Assembly: GCA_003094535.1 (NCBI GenBank)
Contig: NATV01000102.1
Coordinates: 6,507 to 70,506 of the forward strand
Direction of reading: 5' to 3'
Origin: a gamma proteobacterium symbiont of Ctena orbiculata
Lineage (GTDB): Bacteria > Pseudomonadota > Gammaproteobacteria > Chromatiales > Chromatiaceae
Length of the DNA stretch: 64,000 bases
The position numbers and the translations under genes were made by a program. Each line of letters starts with the position of its first letter. Position 1 is the stretch's first letter. Under the pieces are notes generated by a model. That model ran no database searches. It was given only the letters and a program-made list of their open reading frames with translations, and was not told the DNA's origin. Positions 53,737 to 63,619 of the stretch are shown here, piece after piece.

Positions 53737-56436
53737 CTACTGCCGGCAGATCGAAATCAAGGCAGCCTCCCTCTCCGCAGACGAATCACCCTGGACCTCG
53801 CCTGTCCCAAGGTGTTGCAACACCTGATGCATATTGGCGAAGTTGTAAGCGGGTGCACCGACACCATGCGGATTTTTCGCACTCAGCTGCGCGGCAAGTT
53901 CAACCTGTACTGCCTCCGAAAGCGCCCATCCCAGCGGCAGGTCGTGGTCGCGCTTGCAAAGAAGAAAGTGCACGTGATTGACGCTGTCAAGCAGCTCTTC
54001 GTCTAACCGCCTTTGCAGGAACTCCCGGGCCTGAAATCCCCGTGCCGGTCGCACCTTGAGCAAGGCGCGTAGCGGTGATAGGACCTCTCCCATGAGCGGA
54101 TAGAAACTGACCTGCTTGCGAGCCCGTTCCTTATCGGGGATCACCGGCTCGTTGCTGATGTGAATCACGAACGGTCTCAGTTCGTTGTCGGTACTCCGTG
54201 CATAGCGCATCATCGCATCGAGCATCTCGAATGCTGTCACCGCGCCCGAATTTTCGAAATAGCCACCATCCACCAGGTGGAGCCAACCCGCCTCCCGCCC
54301 GCCTTCTCCAGAGCGGAATACCTTTCCGGCGGGACTTACATAAGTGAATCGGGCACTGAGATGCACTGCAGTGCTCAAAGGTATGGCGTTGCCGAGCAGA
54401 GACCGGCCATCGATGGCATCACGGAAGACTTCGCCAAACTCGATACCATTAGGCTGCAACTCCAGCGGGGTCATAATCAAGCGCTGACCGGTTTCAACCA
54501 CGGTACTGTTCAACAGCAGTACTGGGGGGTGGGGCTTCTCCTGATTGGACCGGTCTTTCCAGAGATGATCGAAGCCCATCGCGAAGTCCTCTCTCGAGGT
54601 AAAGCGATTCCAAGCCTGCTCCCAACTCCTTTCCAGCGTCATGGCGCGGTCAGCAAACAGTGGCGACGGTAAGAAGCGTTGCATCAGATCGGGAAACAGC
54701 AGGGTCGCCACGGTGGGTGAAAGGAAATCTTCGCCAAGGACATCGTGTGCAAGATCGCCGAAACAGTTCGGCTGATCTGTGCAGGTGTCGTCAAGATGTT
54801 TGACAGAGGCAGCGAATACTGCGCCGCCAAGGCTGCCGCCGGATACACCGCTGATCGCCAGTAAATGGCGTGCGAAATCGAGGCCCTCGGCACGGGCTCT
54901 ATCCTGCAGCGTGGCCAACACATGCGCCGTCCAATAAGCGGCGCGAATCCCCCCGCCTTCGGCGGCGACAATGAATACCGGTAGCGGATCGCCGTTATCC
55001 TTTTTTCTCTCGCTTACCCATCGCTCCATAAACGCCGTGAAACCATCGACCTGATGAAACGGTCCAGCACGCTCGATTCCGATCGGCACGCCATTGTCGT
55101 CATGACATTCACGATCCGTGGAAGCCATGTCTGGACAAAGGCGAATGCTGTGGTTGTCGTTGAAAAGACTGAAGCTCATCACGAGAACGGCAAGCACTAT
55201 CAACAATGGGTAGCGGAGGCGTGTACTGTAATAGACAAGCAAACTGCCAATTGGAACGATCAGTGCAACCGCGAGCACAACCACGGCAGCACCCCCAACA
55301 GGAACCGCAAATTCCGGCAAGTACAGAAAGAGTAGAAAGAAAACCACATTGGCGATCAGCAGCCCACCCAACGGATACTTGGTGTACGTCTCAAGACCGG
55401 AAAACCCATCGGCCGTGTTGATCATTTGTTTGTCGCGCAGGGATGGTATCAGCTTGCGCCTGAACACAACGATGCCGAGGAATATCAACAAGGCCACGGA
55501 CTGAAAAACAGCAGGAATCAAGGTCTCCCCAAAACGATCGGTCGGGACGCTGACGAAGTAACCCACAGCGACAAGCAGGGGGATTGCGGTACCCAGCACC
55601 CTCGGCAACCAGCGTTTGAGCTCGACCATGGGGTCTTCATCCTGGCTGCGGTAGCCGTCGAAACGGAACATGAAGAGCACCCTGGCCGAATACCAGGTAC
55701 TGAAAGCCGCCAACAGGCTGGCAAAGGCGAGCCAGGCGGCGCGTAGCAGCTGGGTGGAAGTCAGCCCATCATCCGCCTGTCCCACTGTCTCGGTGATGGC
55801 GCGCAGCATCTCCTGCCACTGAGGCACAAACAACACTGCCACCCCGATCGCAAGCATCAACAGACTGAAACGAACGCGGAAAATCGTCTTCGCGACAGGA
55901 CGCGCGAAGTAAACGGCCAGCGCGAAAAACAGTGCCAGCAACGCGAACTTGGTGTAGGCAAAACCCGAGGTGAGAGGTGGGCGAAGCGTTCCGACACCGT
56001 CTTCGTCCGAAAGCATCGACAGCATCAGTACATTTTCAACAATGTCACAGCATCCCGCTAGCAGCGGCAAAACTCCCGAAATCAACAGCAACGGCATCCG
56101 ATGCTGCCTGGATCGGACAAGGGGCGCCCAAGCCAGCAAGACCATGCTTGTCAATAAGGTGACATAGCCGACAATCAGCAGAAAATCCCAGTAGACGCTG
56201 CTTTTCGCTTTGGGAATCAAATCCGCACTCAACCAGCTTGTGAGAATTTCTTGCGCCCTATCGGGCTTCCATGCCAATTCCAGGCTGACAATCCCGTCGC
56301 CACGAACCTGGGCAAGATCATAGTCGATTGCACTGAGCCAACCGGCCAGGGCACCGGTCAACATCAACGCAATAAAGAACAGAATCCAGAGAGCGATTAG
56401 CCTGCGCGACAGGATGGTTTTGTTTTCGGCTTGCAT
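53737..56436 (-). CDS. Polytopic membrane protein with C-terminal patatin-like phospholipase domain
   Basis: Many TM helices; AAEGGGIRAAYW, SGVSGGSLG, LNST, DGGYFENSG. Confidence 0.85.
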   Translation of the reverse strand: MQAENKTILSRRLIALWILFFIALMLTGALAGWLSAIDYDLAQVRGDGIVSLELAWKPDRAQEILTSWLSADLIPKAKSSVYWDFLLIVGYVTLLTSMVLLAWAPLVRSRQHRMPLLLISGVLPLLAGCCDIVENVLMLSMLSDEDGVGTLRPPLTSGFAYTKFALLALFFALAVYFARPVAKTIFRVRFSLLMLAIGVAVLFVPQWQEMLRAITETVGQADDGLTSTQLLRAAWLAFASLLAAFSTWYSARVLFMFRFDGYRSQDEDPMVELKRWLPRVLGTAIPLLVAVGYFVSVPTDRFGETLIPAVFQSVALLIFLGIVVFRRKLIPSLRDKQMINTADGFSGLETYTKYPLGGLLIANVVFFLLFLYLPEFAVPVGGAAVVVLAVALIVPIGSLLVYYSTRLRYPLLIVLAVLVMSFSLFNDNHSIRLCPDMASTDRECHDDNGVPIGIERAGPFHQVDGFTAFMERWVSERKKDNGDPLPVFIVAAEGGGIRAAYWTAHVLATLQDRARAEGLDFARHLLAISGVSGGSLGGAVFAASVKHLDDTCTDQPNCFGDLAHDVLGEDFLSPTVATLLFPDLMQRFLPSPLFADRAMTLERSWEQAWNRFTSREDFAMGFDHLWKDRSNQEKPHPPVLLLNSTVVETGQRLIMTPLELQPNGIEFGEVFRDAIDGRSLLGNAIPLSTAVHLSARFTYVSPAGKVFRSGEGGREAGWLHLVDGGYFENSGAVTAFEMLDAMMRYARSTDNELRPFVIHISNEPVIPDKERARKQVSFYPLMGEVLSPLRALLKVRPARGFQAREFLQRRLDEELLDSVNHVHFLLCKRDHDLPLGWALSEAVQVELAAQLSAKNPHGVGAPAYNFANMHQVLQHLGTGEVQGDSSAEREAALISICRQ

Positions 56437-57687: not shown

Positions 57688-58218
57688 ATGCGCCAGACAG
57701 AACACCCCAATCCCTTACTCCAGGCTTGCTGCTTTCTCGTCTCCTCCCTATGGGCGCTACAGGCGGGCGCCTGGACAGACAAGATCACCGATGACGCACA
57801 TGTCAACAGCGTCTGCGAGCTGACACCGGAAGCCCAGTGTTCCTGGGCGATACTGATCGACCTGCAGGCCCCGGGGGTGGATATGCACGAATCCTCCCTC
57901 GCTTCCGCCCGTCTCGACAGATCAAATTTCGAGCGCGCCAATTTCTCCCGCTCGATCTTTCAGCTGGCCAACCTCAAGGAGGCCAATCTCAGGCTGAGCA
58001 ATCTGGAGTTTGCCCATCTGCACGGTGTCAATCTCCGGAACGCCAATCTGATGTTCGCCAACCTGAGCGGTGCCAGCCTTTTCGATGCCGACTTGAGCGG
58101 CGCGGATCTAAGAGGCGCCAACCTGGTCGGCGCCATTCTGATCAAGGCAAAGCTCGATGGCGCAACCTGGACCGACGGCCGAATCTGCGCGGAGGACTCT
58201 ATCGGTGAGTGCAGATAA
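57688..58218 (+). CDS. Secreted pentapeptide-repeat protein
   Basis: ANL/ASL/ADL pentapeptide run flanked by Cys caps (CELTPEAQC; WTDGRIC...GEC). Confidence 0.9.
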   Translation: MRQTEHPNPLLQACCFLVSSLWALQAGAWTDKITDDAHVNSVCELTPEAQCSWAILIDLQAPGVDMHESSLASARLDRSNFERANFSRSIFQLANLKEANLRLSNLEFAHLHGVNLRNANLMFANLSGASLFDADLSGADLRGANLVGAILIKAKLDGATWTDGRICAEDSIGECR

Positions 58219-58400
58219 ACCTCTTCTCAATGCACATCCTTCCGGTTGACCTGGTTAGCGCTACGCCAAGCGCTGACTGGGAAATGGAAACGGACGCAAC
58301 CCCTCTAAACCAGTGCAATATTCCCGTTACCTAGTCGATTAGGTGCTCTATACTCACTTGAAGCCGCCATCTCCAAGTAACATAAGGACACGGAAGTACG

Positions 58401-59261
58401 ATGAATATCACCAGCTTAGTGATCGAGACCTTGGGAAACCGTATCGAGGAGTCCTACCTGAGCATCTACGGCCCCCAGGAGCCCCTCTATCCCAAGGCGA
58501 TCAATTACGCCGCGCGCACCGTCCTGGAACTCATCGCAAACAGCGATGCCCTCTATCACGATGTCCACCATACCGTGCAGGTGACGCTTGTCGGCGAGGC
58601 CATCCTTCGTGGACGACATATGGTAAAACGGGTCAGTCCCGACGATTGGCTCCACTTCATGGGGGCCTGCCTGCTGCACGATATCGGCTATGTGCGCGGG
58701 GTCTGCCCGGGCGATACCGACACCGAGTTTGTCATCGATGCGGAGGGCAACCGGATCACGCCTCCCCGCGGCGCCTCGGATGCCTATCTCACGCCCTATC
58801 ACGTCGATCGCGGTATCCTCTTCGCCAAGAGCCGCGGTAAAGAGGTACCCTATATCGACACCGACCGTCTGGCCCGCGCTATCGAACTGACCAGATTTCC
58901 CGTTCCGGACTCCGCCGACCACCAAGAGACGGATACCGAGGCCGGCCTGGTTCGCGCCGCCGATCTCATCGGCCAACTGGGGGATCCCGACCACATGCGC
59001 CGCCTGACCGGGTTGTACCATGAATTCGTGGAGACCGGGACCGCGGAAAAACTCGGCTACACCAGCGCCGCCGACCTGGCGGAAGACTATCCGGTCTTTT
59101 TCTGGAATGTGGTACAACCCTATCTGAAGGACGCCCTGCGCTACCTCCAACTTACCCAGGAGGGCAAGCAGTGGATTGCCAACCTGCATTCCCATGTATT
59201 TGCCGTGGAACACAACCAGTTTTATCTGGGGCCCTACACCGGTAATAAGAGCGTCCAATAG
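58401..59261 (+). CDS. HD-domain metal-dependent phosphohydrolase (resembles Npun_R2479 family)
   Basis: ALYHDVHHT, LLHDIGYVRG, PYHVDRG, VRAADLIGQL. Confidence 0.85.
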   Translation: MNITSLVIETLGNRIEESYLSIYGPQEPLYPKAINYAARTVLELIANSDALYHDVHHTVQVTLVGEAILRGRHMVKRVSPDDWLHFMGACLLHDIGYVRGVCPGDTDTEFVIDAEGNRITPPRGASDAYLTPYHVDRGILFAKSRGKEVPYIDTDRLARAIELTRFPVPDSADHQETDTEAGLVRAADLIGQLGDPDHMRRLTGLYHEFVETGTAEKLGYTSAADLAEDYPVFFWNVVQPYLKDALRYLQLTQEGKQWIANLHSHVFAVEHNQFYLGPYTGNKSVQ

Positions 59262-59331
59262 TCGATTCATCGCCAAGCCGATCAACAGAACAATTGGGGG
59301 GTGGCTGGGCGCCAATAGGGGAGGCAGCTAG

Positions 59332-60939
59332 ATGAAGAGGATCGAATTCAACAATCTACGCGCGCGTACCTACCGCAAGAAAGCCGAGGTGTTTGCGTTC
59401 CGCTCCGAAGCCCCCTTCTCCTTTTCGAAATCCTGGGGCGAGCAGAGGGTTCGCGAAAGCGGATGGGTAGTCGTGCCGATCGCGAACGGCGGAACGGCGA
59501 GTCAAGACATCTATGGCTGCGACGCCGATGTCTTTGCCGAGACGTACGAACCATCGCCTTCGCAACGACCCAACCGCTATCGCAAGAAGGAGACGATCCG
59601 CGCCTATCAACCGGGGGAGCCTTTCGAGATCGAGACCAGGCTCGCCGACGGCCATCTGGAGGTCGAATCATCGTCGGCTGACTCCTATACCACCTGGCTG
59701 GCGAGAAATCCGAGCGGCGAGACCTACACCATCGAAGACGAAGTGTTCCGCGACACCTACGTCGAGGTACAGGAGCGGGGCGAGAAGTACCGTATTCGAT
59801 CCCGGGATGAGCACTGGATCCCGGATGGAACACCGCGACGAATCCTGGCCCTTGACGGCGGCGGAGTGCGCGGCATTCTCACCCTTCAGTACCTGGCGCG
59901 CATCGAGGCGATCCTGAAGAAGCGCCACGGCGACTCGGATGAGTTCCGGCTCTGCCACTATTTCGACCTGATCGCCGGCACCTCCACCGGGGCGATAATT
60001 GCCGCCGCCCTGGCGCGGGGTTCACGGGTCTCGGAGATCATCGATCTCTATAACAGGCTCGCAGCGGATATCTTCAGGCGCTCCTGGTTTCGCTTTGGGC
60101 TCATGCGTGCCAAGTTCAGCGCGGACCGTCTTCGCCAACATCTGCGTGCGGAGTTCAAAAACAATACCATGGGCAGCACCGCGATACAGACCGGTCTGCT
60201 CGTCGTTGCAAAACGACTCGATAGCGGCAGTACCTGGCCGATGTCGAACAATCCGTTGAGCCCTTTTTTCAGGGCGGAGCCAAACGACACCTTCTTCTCC
60301 AATGAGGACTACCTGCTGCGTCGCGTGGTACGTGCGAGCACGGCGGCCCCGCACTACTTCGCTCCGGAGTACATCGAGATCAGCACCGAGAAGGAGAAGC
60401 CTCACGGACAGTTTATCGATGGCGGCGCAAGCCCGCACAACAATCCCTCCCTACTCGCGCTTCAGCTGGTATCCGTCTCCGGATTCGGTGCGGGCTGGGA
60501 CCTCGACCCGGATAAGCTACTGCTGTTTTCGGTGGGCACGGGCATGGCGAATCCCGATGTATCGCGCAGCTGGTTCGCCGGTGAGCACGCCCTGAAATCG
60601 CTCCTGTCACTGATGAACGACTGCGCCGAGTCCGTGGAAACAGTGCTCCAATGGCTCTCTTCCAGCCCCACGGCACGGCACCTGGATGCCGCACTGAAGG
60701 AGATGCATGGTGACCTGCTGGCGGAACGACCCCTGTTACACTACCTTCGTTACAATGTGATGCTGGATTCAGATTGGCTGAAAGACAATTTGGGATTGAA
60801 TTGCACAAAACCTGACATCGACAGGCTCAAGAAGATGGACCTACCGGAGAATATGCAAGCTTTGAGCAAAATCGGAAATACGGCGGCCAAACTCCAGATC
60901 GAGGAGACGCACTTTCCACCGAGCTTCGACCTTTGGTAA
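59332..60939 (+). CDS. Patatin-like phospholipase with a tandem PGDYG-like N-terminal domain pair
   Basis: ALDGGGVRG, AGTSTG, ASTAAPHYF, IDGG intact; N-terminal repeats YRKK...A...F..TY x2; GGAGG RBS. Confidence 0.88.
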   Translation: MKRIEFNNLRARTYRKKAEVFAFRSEAPFSFSKSWGEQRVRESGWVVVPIANGGTASQDIYGCDADVFAETYEPSPSQRPNRYRKKETIRAYQPGEPFEIETRLADGHLEVESSSADSYTTWLARNPSGETYTIEDEVFRDTYVEVQERGEKYRIRSRDEHWIPDGTPRRILALDGGGVRGILTLQYLARIEAILKKRHGDSDEFRLCHYFDLIAGTSTGAIIAAALARGSRVSEIIDLYNRLAADIFRRSWFRFGLMRAKFSADRLRQHLRAEFKNNTMGSTAIQTGLLVVAKRLDSGSTWPMSNNPLSPFFRAEPNDTFFSNEDYLLRRVVRASTAAPHYFAPEYIEISTEKEKPHGQFIDGGASPHNNPSLLALQLVSVSGFGAGWDLDPDKLLLFSVGTGMANPDVSRSWFAGEHALKSLLSLMNDCAESVETVLQWLSSSPTARHLDAALKEMHGDLLAERPLLHYLRYNVMLDSDWLKDNLGLNCTKPDIDRLKKMDLPENMQALSKIGNTAAKLQIEETHFPPSFDLW

Positions 60940-61056
60940 CAACGAGCCGATAAGCGCACTGAAATGCACGCAAAGGGTAGATCGCTTTATTGATTCACTC
61001 GAGAAATAGAGGCGCCGGACGAATAACCACCCTTCGATTGAGCGTAACGGTTTGAT

Positions 61057-61746
61057 CTAACATGGTGAGGCAACAATGGCGACTTCCTGCGCCGGCTTTA
61101 CACTATGCACAATCCCCCTGATCAAACGAAATCCGGATTCGCCAAGTCCCAGTCGTTGCGCCCAATTGGCCGCAAAGCGATCGTAGCCAAACCGACGAAC
61201 GCCGCTTGCGGCGACATCAAATCCGCAATCGCTGACCAGGTTGCCCAAAGTCTGGACATTCCAGGCATAGAGATGGTGATTGGGTTCCCGGGGATCGTAA
61301 CTCCGGTATCGTCTCTCTTTCTCGTAGGGCACGAACAACAGCAGTTTGCCATCCTGTTTAAGCAGCCGGCGGATTTCCGCCAGCACCTCCACCGGCGAGG
61401 GCACATGCTCCAGAACATGGTGACAAACCATGACATCCACCGAGTGGTCCGCAAGGGTTGAGGTATCGGGTACGAATTCTATGCCCTGACTGGAGAGCAA
61501 GGGTTCTAAATGTTGTGCAAGGTCGAATCCCAATCGCTGTTGGCAATCCAGCCTGGCGATATTCCAACCGAAACCGACACCATACTCCATTACCACATCA
61601 GAAGATCTGACCTGCGGCGCGATTTTCTCATATCTGAGCTTGGCAACCCAGGGGAAGGCCTCGTCAGGGATTTCACGTTTCTTGCCGTGATACTCACGAC
61701 CCAGTTCTCCCTGATAACGCTGTTTGATTCGATCTTCTGTGGCCAT
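61057..61746 (-). CDS. Class I SAM-dependent methyltransferase
   Basis: MEYGVGFG, DVMVCHHVLEHV, LKQDG. Confidence 0.88.
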   Translation of the reverse strand: MATEDRIKQRYQGELGREYHGKKREIPDEAFPWVAKLRYEKIAPQVRSSDVVMEYGVGFGWNIARLDCQQRLGFDLAQHLEPLLSSQGIEFVPDTSTLADHSVDVMVCHHVLEHVPSPVEVLAEIRRLLKQDGKLLLFVPYEKERRYRSYDPREPNHHLYAWNVQTLGNLVSDCGFDVAASGVRRFGYDRFAANWAQRLGLGESGFRLIRGIVHSVKPAQEVAIVASPC

Positions 61747-61978
61747 CGATTTATATGCTGTCTAGTCGTTGAATACTCGCTTTGGGTCTGAACTTTCTCA
61801 GACTGTCCCTGACCAGCCATTCTACATAATCCTGCCCTCGCACGAGTAACTATTCTTCGACACCTTGACCCCAACCTACCCACCTCCAGGGCAATAGCGG
61901 TTTCCCGATGGGTGAGTGATTGGGTAACTCGGTACGACCTGTCAATCGCCTTTCGGCGTACCCTTACAGACAAACCGG

Positions 61979-63619
61979 TTATCGATTTTCCGATGGTTCT
62001 GTATCGGCAAATTCAACCCTGTTCTTGCCCCCTTGCTTGGCGACATAGAGCGCATCGTCAGCGTCTTGAATAAACGCCGACAGGCTCTGTTGTCCATCCC
62101 ATGAAGCCACACCGATACTGGCCGTGACCCGTCTCCCGGAGAGGCCGGCACAATCAAAGTCGGCAATACGTTCGAGCAACCGGTGCGCGATGCCCACGGC
62201 AGCCTCCGGATCGATATCCAGCAATGCGATTGTAAACTCCTCGCCGCCGTAGCGCCCTGCGAAATCACTCGCGCGCACAACCTCTCGAATCAACTCGGCA
62301 ATTCCCTCCAATACCGCATCCCCCGCCAGATGTCCGAATTGATCATTTATGGTTTTAAAATCGTCAAGATCGCACATTAAAATAGAGAGTGGGGCATGCG
62401 AGCGCTCGGAGCGGTACATCTCCTGCTGCAATCGCTCATTGAAATTCCGATGGTTGTAGAGACCAGTCAGACTGTCCCGCTCCGAACGTTCCTTATAGAA
62501 CTCCTTCAACTGAAGAATTTCGCCTGTCTGTCTCCTGATAACGTCATGCAACTTCCGTGAGCCGTAGGTGATGGCCAGATAGAGAAGCACCTCCACCACA
62601 GCAAAGCCGACGACAGCATAGATCAGATTTATTTTCAGCTGATTTCTGTGTGCTGCCACCTCATCGGAGATGTCGGACAACATGACGACCATACCTGCCT
62701 GCCTGTCTCTGCCATGGGTTGTGGCACGATAGTCATAGAGCGGAAAGTGGGTAACTGCATATTCCATCCCGGCATAGCTATGACGAAACGTGCGCAGTTG
62801 CGTTTTGTAAGGCTCCAGATCGTCACAACGTTCGATAATCTCCAACACCTGGGGATTGGAGAGTGCCTCGACATAGCAGGGCGAATCGCTCGACAACCTG
62901 AAGATCCGCTTATTGATCGACTCCGGCCACATGGTCGAATGCACCAGCTCCTGGTTCAGCATCACCAGCATCTCGACGCCGGTCCGCTGGTAGATCTTCT
63001 CCAATACTGTCTGATAGGAAGTCCCCACCTCCAATACTCCGATCAACTCCGTCTCACCATTCTCCAGCGTACCCCACATGGGGGTCACGCCCCTCAGGCC
63101 CGCGTAGACTCTGCCCACTTCAAATCCTGTCTTGATTTCCCGGTCCCGATAGCTATCGACAATGATGTGGCGGATCTCATCCATGCGGTCACCATACTTG
63201 TCCGGGGCATGCACACGCAGAAAACTGAGAGAACCGGGTCCCAGGTGAAAATGGAGCTGCCGGGCATCGTACTGCTCCATCAGCGGTATCCAGCTCGGAG
63301 AGACAGCACGAAACAGCTGATCCCGTATCTTTGCCGTCTCAACACCACCAGCTCCACCGCCTTCCCGGATCAGCGCTGCTTTACCGGCCTGAAACAGCTG
63401 CTTGACCTGCTGCTGATTTGAGATGTAAGTAGAGAGTTGCAGCATATTCTCGGAGACCAGGGCCAGGGTCAGGTCGTATTCGTGCTTGAGATTTATGCCG
63501 TCACGGCTGAGACTGATCCGCAGGGTGCGCTGACTGGTGTAGTAGTTGATCCCGACAAACAGCATGTCGCTGATAAGAATCAGCAGGGTCAATATCAGAA
63601 ACAGTCGTTTGCTCTTCAT
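61979..63619 (-). CDS. Cache-domain diguanylate cyclase
   Basis: Two TM helices around a periplasmic domain (QLHFHL...SFLRVH); DSLTGLYN, DLDDFK.IND, RYGGEEF; start MKSKR. Confidence 0.92.
   Translation of the reverse strand: MKSKRLFLILTLLILISDMLFVGINYYTSQRTLRISLSRDGINLKHEYDLTLALVSENMLQLSTYISNQQQVKQLFQAGKAALIREGGGAGGVETAKIRDQLFRAVSPSWIPLMEQYDARQLHFHLGPGSLSFLRVHAPDKYGDRMDEIRHIIVDSYRDREIKTGFEVGRVYAGLRGVTPMWGTLENGETELIGVLEVGTSYQTVLEKIYQRTGVEMLVMLNQELVHSTMWPESINKRIFRLSSDSPCYVEALSNPQVLEIIERCDDLEPYKTQLRTFRHSYAGMEYAVTHFPLYDYRATTHGRDRQAGMVVMLSDISDEVAAHRNQLKINLIYAVVGFAVVEVLLYLAITYGSRKLHDVIRRQTGEILQLKEFYKERSERDSLTGLYNHRNFNERLQQEMYRSERSHAPLSILMCDLDDFKTINDQFGHLAGDAVLEGIAELIREVVRASDFAGRYGGEEFTIALLDIDPEAAVGIAHRLLERIADFDCAGLSGRRVTASIGVASWDGQQSLSAFIQDADDALYVAKQGGKNRVEFADTEPSENR

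Follow-up and report, generated by a model that had tools for sequence, protein, structure and literature searches.

A CapV-like patatin lipase with an N-terminal tandem PGDYG-like domain in a clam symbiont genome

The locus considered here raises a simple question: do two adjacent genes in a gammaproteobacterial symbiont of the clam Ctena orbiculata, one encoding an HD phosphohydrolase and the other a patatin-like lipase, act as a signalling pair, or does the lipase carry its own switch? The genes lie in a stretch of 64,000 nucleotides (nt) of contig NATV01000102.1, hereafter the window. An initial annotation, made from the letters of this stretch, proposed that a repeat pair at the N-terminus of the lipase senses a ligand and gates the enzyme, with the HD protein making or removing that ligand. 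The gene arrangement it described is correct: two co-oriented open reading frames (ORFs) on the + strand, at 58401–59261 (286 amino acids, aa) and 59332–60939 (535 aa), are separated by a 70-nt spacer (59262–59331, +) that carries a GGGGAGG ribosome-binding site. We found that the conserved partnership is that of the patatin with PGDYG, a small domain that occurs in tandem, and not that of HD with patatin. On balance, we take the 535-aa protein to be a mobile, single-chain sensor-effector, in which a CapV-like lipase would be gated by its PGDYG pair in an abortive-infection-type role. New here is a CapV-like lipase family that travels with, and is repeatedly fused to, a small duplicated domain undescribed in the literature searched.

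A patatin core closest to CBASS lipases

The catalytic core of the lipase spans residues 168–415 (59833–60576, +). Pfam PF01734 matches residues 172–374 at E 7.8e-29, with 101.7 bits against a cut-off of 27.7, placing the protein in the patatin family. The catalytic motifs had been called intact, and they are: the oxyanion loop D175-G-G-G-V-R-G181, the elbow G216-T-S218-T-G220 and the D363-G-G motif are all present and are invariant or at least 90% conserved across 62 homologs. The members of the S218/D363 dyad align with S58 and D192 of AbCapV, respectively. A conserved C-terminal helical region (residues 416–535 and the stop codon; 60577–60939, +), common to the 389-aa short forms of the family, completes the protein.

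Among solved structures, AbCapV and CapE come closest to it. Foldseek comparison of the patatin core with 1oxw, 4pkb, 8zr9 and 9iop, which include AbCapV, CapE and plant patatin, gave E values of about 1e-15, and phmmer against AbCapV gave E 8e-21. The PADLOC model for phospholipase effectors of the cyclic-oligonucleotide-based antiphage signalling system (CBASS) also matches the lipase, at E 5e-47. Patatin lipases are the commonest CBASS effectors.

We nevertheless rejected membership in CBASS. The score against NCBIfam NF041079 (CBASS_lipase/CapV) is 117.7 bits, short of the cut-off of 200. No CD-NTase is present among the ORFs of the window, as had been observed, and the whole 4.29-Mb, 99.99%-complete genome holds no match to the SMODS-type CD-NTase PF18144, the sole CD-NTase model searched. 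Finally, in a phmmer alignment whose loops are aligned with uncertainty, the AbCapV residues that contact cyclic GMP–AMP (cGAMP), F147, K149, D159 and E207, stand opposite F312, R314, N324 and L379, with R279 unaligned, so that two of the four alignable contacts appear not to be conserved; R314 itself is replaced by T in most of the patatin family.

The comparison with CapV and CapE (AbCapV, 8zr9/9kej; CapE, 9iom; PMC12480259) thus has two sides. The window protein shares their patatin fold and Ser/Asp dyad, matches them best in both structure and sequence, and its presumed output, hydrolysis of membrane phospholipid, would be theirs. Apart from the missing cyclase and the apparently divergent positions opposite K149, D159 and E207, it differs in layout: CapV senses its ligand at filament interfaces and has no separate sensor domain (PMC12480259), whereas the window protein bears a 165-aa N-terminal tandem domain.

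A tandem PGDYG-like domain and its partnership with the lipase

Two repeats of about 65 aa had been described at the N-terminus, and the strings quoted for them (RTYRKKAEVFA...DVFAETY and NRYRKKETIRA...EVFRDTY) are indeed present in the translation. Repeat 1 covers residues 10–74 (59359–59553, +), with conserved K33, W35, G36, Q38, W45, Y61, F68, T71 and Y72; repeat 2 covers residues 81–146 (59572–59769, +), with conserved K85, A91, G107, Y132, F139 and Y143. The internal duplication is detectable by BLASTP, which aligns residues 10–72 with 79–143 at E 0.001 and 26% identity over 65 aa. The AlphaFold model (mean confidence, pLDDT, 87) runs twice through the same order of elements: six strands, then a helix, then a strand.

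The label PGDYG-like, given to these repeats at the outset, held at the level of profiles and fold and failed in direct scans. Pfam PGDYG (PF14083) found no match in residues 1–170, 1–82 or 78–165, even at E 10, and an NCBIfam scan of the region returned nothing. Of nine PGDYG-containing sequences scanned, three reach the Pfam cut-off for PF14083 and five more fall slightly under it. By contrast with the direct scan, hhalign aligned the N-terminal profile with standalone tandem PGDYG proteins over both repeats (97%, E 1.1e-10, 118 columns), and the best ESM Atlas match of the model is a PGDYG cluster, with template-modelling (TM) scores of 0.63/0.79 and a root-mean-square deviation of 2.4 Å. 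In a joint alignment, K33, Q38, W45, Y61, F68, A91, F139 and Y143 are invariant residues in common. The N-terminal repeat pair belongs with the tandem PGDYG proteins. Repeat architecture and fold are those of PF14083, a family of bacteria and phages; the window module differs in being fused to an enzyme and in having lost the signature, the literal PGDYG / GDW-L-V motif being replaced by ESGWVVV and TTWLAR.

Searches for more remote relatives added little. Foldseek with the N-terminal model found no match in the Protein Data Bank (PDB) at E ≤ 0.001, a search of BFVD returned only unnamed phage and giant-virus proteins, and an ESM Atlas feature search gave no usable match. The phage families phrog_419 and phrog_1810 do match the PGDYG-type module. 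As a separate observation, three giant proteins, P0243 (3743 aa), P0244 (1612 aa) and P0253 (3138 aa), carry 5 to 17 matches to the tandem-PGDYG profile.

We surveyed 80 patatin-family loci from reference genomes with their 6-kb neighbourhoods, counting tandem PGDYG after one profile iteration. The loci are spread over Acidobacteriota, Actinomycetota, Cyanobacteriota, Bacteroidota, several classes of Pseudomonadota and others. Tandem PGDYG is present in 34 of them: directly downstream of the patatin gene (16 loci), fused to the patatin C-terminus (4), fused to its N-terminus (3) or elsewhere within 6 kb (11). A hidden Markov model of the lipase's N-terminal region, run over the same loci, matched ORFs of about 130 aa placed directly after short, 389-aa patatin genes, and most of these score as PGDYG in Pfam. 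One homolog of the lipase, P0113, consists of a patatin followed by two C-terminal PF14083 PGDYG repeats.

Fusion has happened more than once. In a FastTree phylogeny of the lipase core, the N-fused forms make up one well-supported clade and one long-branched pair, consistent with one or two N-terminal fusions, and C-terminal fusions have at least three independent origins, within a clade where an adjacent PGDYG gene is common. Repeated independent fusion of neighbouring genes is a classical sign of proteins that act together. Because the tandem unit is elsewhere the gene directly after the lipase, or a C-terminal fusion to it, we suggest that patatin and PGDYG act together. A complex prediction for a short patatin (L015) and its downstream PGDYG protein scored 0.00 and is counted neither for nor against binding.

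The module also occurs with other domains. Run against 1.84 billion representatives, the tandem profile returned 1526 clusters, mostly stand-alone proteins of 120–150 aa; among 57 longer module-bearing proteins were 6 patatins, 6 DUF4231, 3 SLATT_1 and 1 SLATT_3 proteins and 12 protein kinases. Fusions of PGDYG to SLATT and DUF4231 are seen in the AlphaFold Database as well, and in the ESM Atlas a comparable unit is present, with lower TM scores, in DHH/DHHA1 and TPR-S proteins. SLATT domains are predicted pore-forming effectors. Given the fusions to patatin, SLATT and DUF4231, the module accompanies membrane-attacking effector domains of the kinds found in CBASS and Thoeris. The idea that the repeat pair senses or regulates the lipase gains from this distribution, in which the module, within the patatin family, either follows as a separate gene or is joined to one or the other terminus of the lipase.

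The HD gene and the lipase cassette

The HD protein (58401–59261, +) is a metalloprotein of the Npun_R2479 family. It aligns full-length with NCBIfam NF045583 (residues 2–272, E 1.1e-97) at 326.5 bits, below the equivalog cut-off of 400 bits, and its homologs are labelled PF28239 (Npun_R2479). The metal-binding residues H53, H57, H93-D94 and D188 are invariant across the family, whose members are found in varied genomic contexts, most of them without a lipase. A class-I phosphodiesterase-like identity was rejected, the PDEase_I match (E 0.037) falling far under cut-off. A PDB sequence search with the protein gave no meaningful match, and in the literature searched Npun_R2479 is mentioned in a proteomics preprint only. 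The initial annotation described this HD type as often linked to cyclases; we found no evidence for such a link.

Is the HD protein a partner of the lipase? Co-occurrence across genomes, proposed in the initial annotation as a check on the pairing, does not hold in general. HD and patatin genes are adjacent only in G000, in the congener G013 and in L101/L103, and among the 80 patatin loci an HD gene lies within 6 kb of the lipase in L001, from G013, only. N-fused patatins stand without HD in nine other contexts (P0005, P0016, P0027, P0061, P0059, P0077, P0041, L002 and L003). Conversely, 80 metagenomic HD loci of 51–88% identity yielded neither patatin nor PGDYG; in 37 of them the downstream sequence extends for 1.2 kb or more. 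HD is a resident neighbour of the patatin, not an obligatory partner, and probably not a functional one.

The exceptions deserve attention. In L103 and the sister-sample L101, which represent a second organism, HD and lipase genes adjoin with a 29-bp spacer between genes for FIST and GST proteins. DNA homology between L103 and the window is confined to the two coding regions, and the FIST protein flanking the pair has no homolog in the symbiont genome. Within the window, no terminator was found between HD and patatin; the two terminator-like sites that the scan returned are below chance expectation, and a scan for sigma-70 promoters gave no sites. A contig from the gill metatranscriptome (X1 record 3; 58668–59599, 932 nt) reaches from the end of the HD gene across the spacer and 268 nt into the lipase gene; its depth is low, about 3–8, compared with about 145–244 for the adjacent methyltransferase and GGDEF genes. 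Overall, the k-mer depth in gill RNA libraries is 2–8 over the HD and lipase genes, against 65–244 over the methyltransferase and GGDEF genes (window 61049–62000). Contigs from such libraries show neither a single transcript nor strand nor expression level, and the parts they leave uncovered carry no meaning.

These data bear on a specific alternative, that HD and PGDYG-patatin form a two-gene operon in this lineage in which the HD enzyme makes, trims or clears a nucleotide ligand sensed by the PGDYG pair. Order and orientation are alike in two unrelated contexts (rsmA–methyltransferase in G000 and G013, FIST–GST in L103 and L101), with spacers of only 70, 48 and 29 bp, homology restricted to the coding DNA, no intergenic terminator and an RNA-library contig across the junction. 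Between the L103 organism and the window genome, moreover, identity reaches 85% in HD and 77% in the patatin but only 66% in a flanking FimW. Set against this, seven congeners keep HD at the locus without the patatin, HD is absent within 6 kb in all of 76 other patatin loci, and further HD genes, about 84% identical, follow ftsZ or lie close to a gene for hexokinase; patatin and PGDYG are also wanting from the metagenomic HD loci. The N-fused homologs without HD comprise P0005, at 80% identity, and eight more distant ones. We hold the operon to be unlikely, its low weight following from the P0005 lipase, which falls within the shallow clade yet lacks HD. As a general rule, a role for HD in making or removing the signal does not stand, since the pair is limited to that shallow clade; a lineage-specific link is possible in view of the two contexts and the RNA contig over the junction.

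The distribution of the lipase gene is patchy. It is present in 2 of 25 congeners, as compared with 9 of 25 for HD; among 301 genomes of the order, its family occurs in 4. The N-fused clade includes, at about 56–59% identity, Chlorobium sequences and a contig with Por-secretion-tail genes. In seven congeners the genes run rsmA, pentapeptide, HD and methyltransferase with nothing between HD and methyltransferase, and blastn homology to one of them, G011 (L095; rsmA–penta–HD–methyltransferase without the patatin), breaks at 59249 and restarts at 61076. Because homology is interrupted in just this place, the lipase gene alone constitutes the indel (59250–61075). Judged from these alignments, the patatin gene is a single-gene cassette, acquired or lost, that is rare and accessory in this Candidatus Thiodiazotropha-like clam symbiont.

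Neighbourhoods of relatives and possible roles

Some of the N-fused relatives lie near genes of conflict type. TIR, NACHT or STAND proteins bearing an FGE-sulfatase domain occur in 5 of their 11 independent contexts. In L107 (3786–11772) the lipase gene is bracketed by two same-strand NACHT-FGE-sulfatase genes, which are 75 and 24 bp away, and in L002 (2540–7596) one such gene precedes it on the same strand; the encoded proteins are about 1045 aa long, and in two of three the N-terminal part matches the PADLOC candidate PDC-S60. The contexts of P0016, P0027 and P0005 contain TIR- or DUF4062-STAND-FGE proteins, with transposases as well in P0016. Short patatins without a PGDYG neighbour show a different association: 10 of 20 large downstream neighbours are proteins of 470–810 aa that contain TPR-S. 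In nine of these TPR-S neighbours (L071, L004, L007, L078, L034, L064, L027, L051 and L062) the N-terminal domain is weakly DNPH1/NDT-like (E 0.002).

A DNPH1-like domain joined to TPR-S is the architecture of ThsI in type VIII Thoeris (bioRxiv 10.64898/2025.12.03.692087), and the neighbours resemble it, with no TIR gene seen adjoining them. The likeness to Thoeris types VII and VIII (ThsH SLATT, ThsI; bioRxiv 10.64898/2025.12.03.692087) extends to the logic of a killing effector gated by a signal, to relatives of the lipase that adjoin TIR genes or ThsI-like proteins, and to the fusion of the PGDYG module to SLATT, a predicted pore-forming effector in that preprint. The difference is that no TIR gene adjoins the window lipase. 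The same preprint names phospholipases as predicted effectors only and does not mention patatin.

How might the protein work? On the reading we favour, a CapV-like patatin phospholipase (Ser218/Asp363) carries N-terminal tandem PGDYG-type small beta-barrels that would keep the lipase inactive, or would recruit it, until a trigger is bound. That trigger may be a small nucleotide-derived signal or a protein of the invader. Once triggered, the lipase would degrade membrane phospholipid, as abortive-infection effectors do. The gene is a cassette in a variable spot between the HD and methyltransferase genes, and the lipase is perhaps read through from the HD transcript. The patatin gene probably encodes a suicide or defence effector that is complete in itself. 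What the data show is that the domains are homologous, that they are repeatedly fused or adjacent, that the distribution is patchy and that there is an indel; the gating of the lipase, its ligand and the defence role are inferred.

Several results weigh against this view. PGDYG is missing within 6 kb from 46 of the 80 patatin loci. A wide VIA-align search with the N-terminal model gave only SH3/Tudor-like matches with Z ≤ 4.1, within the noise of the tool, and structure therefore points to no ligand. Neither PGDYG nor PF14083 is mentioned in the literature searched, PADLOC 2.0 has no PGDYG model, and the window holds no further defence gene. Several contexts of homologs are, in addition, housekeeping- or lipid-like: acpP–fabF precedes P0061, for example, and genes for an acyltransferase and a glycosyltransferase precede P0077.

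Such contexts are the reason for retaining another explanation, an ordinary lipid-remodelling or nutrient lipase with no part in conflict, whose PGDYG pair serves only for docking to membrane, lipid or protein. The window neighbours, rsmA, a methyltransferase and a GGDEF protein, are likewise housekeeping-like, and the gill RNA libraries do contain the gene, if only at low depth. An ordinary lipase would sit poorly with the very patchy distribution in genus and order, with the fusion of the same module to pore-type SLATT/DUF4231 effectors, with CBASS lipases as the closest structures and with the TIR, NACHT and TPR-S genes that recur near homologs; we regard it as unlikely. Those recurring genes could instead mean that the lipase acts in trans as effector for a TIR or NLR-like (STAND) system, switched on by an ADP-ribose-type signal from one of the TIR proteins of the genome or by direct contact with a NACHT-FGE-sulfatase protein. 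The flanking genes in L107 and L002, TIR genes near P0005, P0007 and P0016 and the ThsI-like proteins next to short patatins would fit, as would the 11 TIR_2 matches in the symbiont genome. These 11, however, lie on nine contigs (C142, C146, C111, C45, C135, C109, C161, C139 and C92), none of them the contig of the window; eight ORFs scanned between 52937 and 63658 contain no TIR domain, and the window has no TIR or STAND gene. The neighbours vary, none is universal, and linkage within an island is not functional coupling. This last explanation appears very unlikely.

The single-chain sensor-effector can also be placed in a broader frame, which we put forward tentatively and consider rather unlikely as a whole. 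Tandem PGDYG would then be an undescribed family of signal-binding sensors that gates patatin lipases, SLATT pores, DHH phosphoesterases and kinases, with a nucleotide-derived immune signal as the likely trigger; the window gene would unite immune sensor and effector in one protein, and clearing the signal would, in this lineage, fall to the HD hydrolase encoded upstream. If the PGDYG pair is a switch, it would be a new sensor module for bacterial immune signalling and would offer a small system, of one gene only, in which the gating of lipase effectors could be tested. To a symbiont genome that already has many TIR proteins, the gene would add one more accessory conflict gene.

The stretch from rsmA to the methyltransferase gene is a variable spot in other respects too. 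Comparison of window 57688–59261 with L095–L100 shows that congeners differ in which gene comes first, HD or that for the exported pentapeptide-repeat protein (rsmA–penta–HD or rsmA–HD–penta), and G013 has no pentapeptide gene. In G011, the spacer that stands in place of the lipase cassette (L095 6380–6504) contains a heptamer repeat run, (AAAACTC)n. The window itself encodes a second patatin-like protein at 53737–56436 (−), of 899 aa, with a hydrophobic, multi-pass-looking N-terminal half followed by a patatin-like domain (GGGIRA, GVSGGS and DGGYFEN) that scores 26.5 bits with Pfam Patatin, slightly below the cut-off. At the HD/methyltransferase junction of the congener G016 lies a different patatin-like gene (L098 4265–6415), whose 716-aa product has a patatin-like domain related to that of the 899-aa protein, with 28% identity over about 400 aa.

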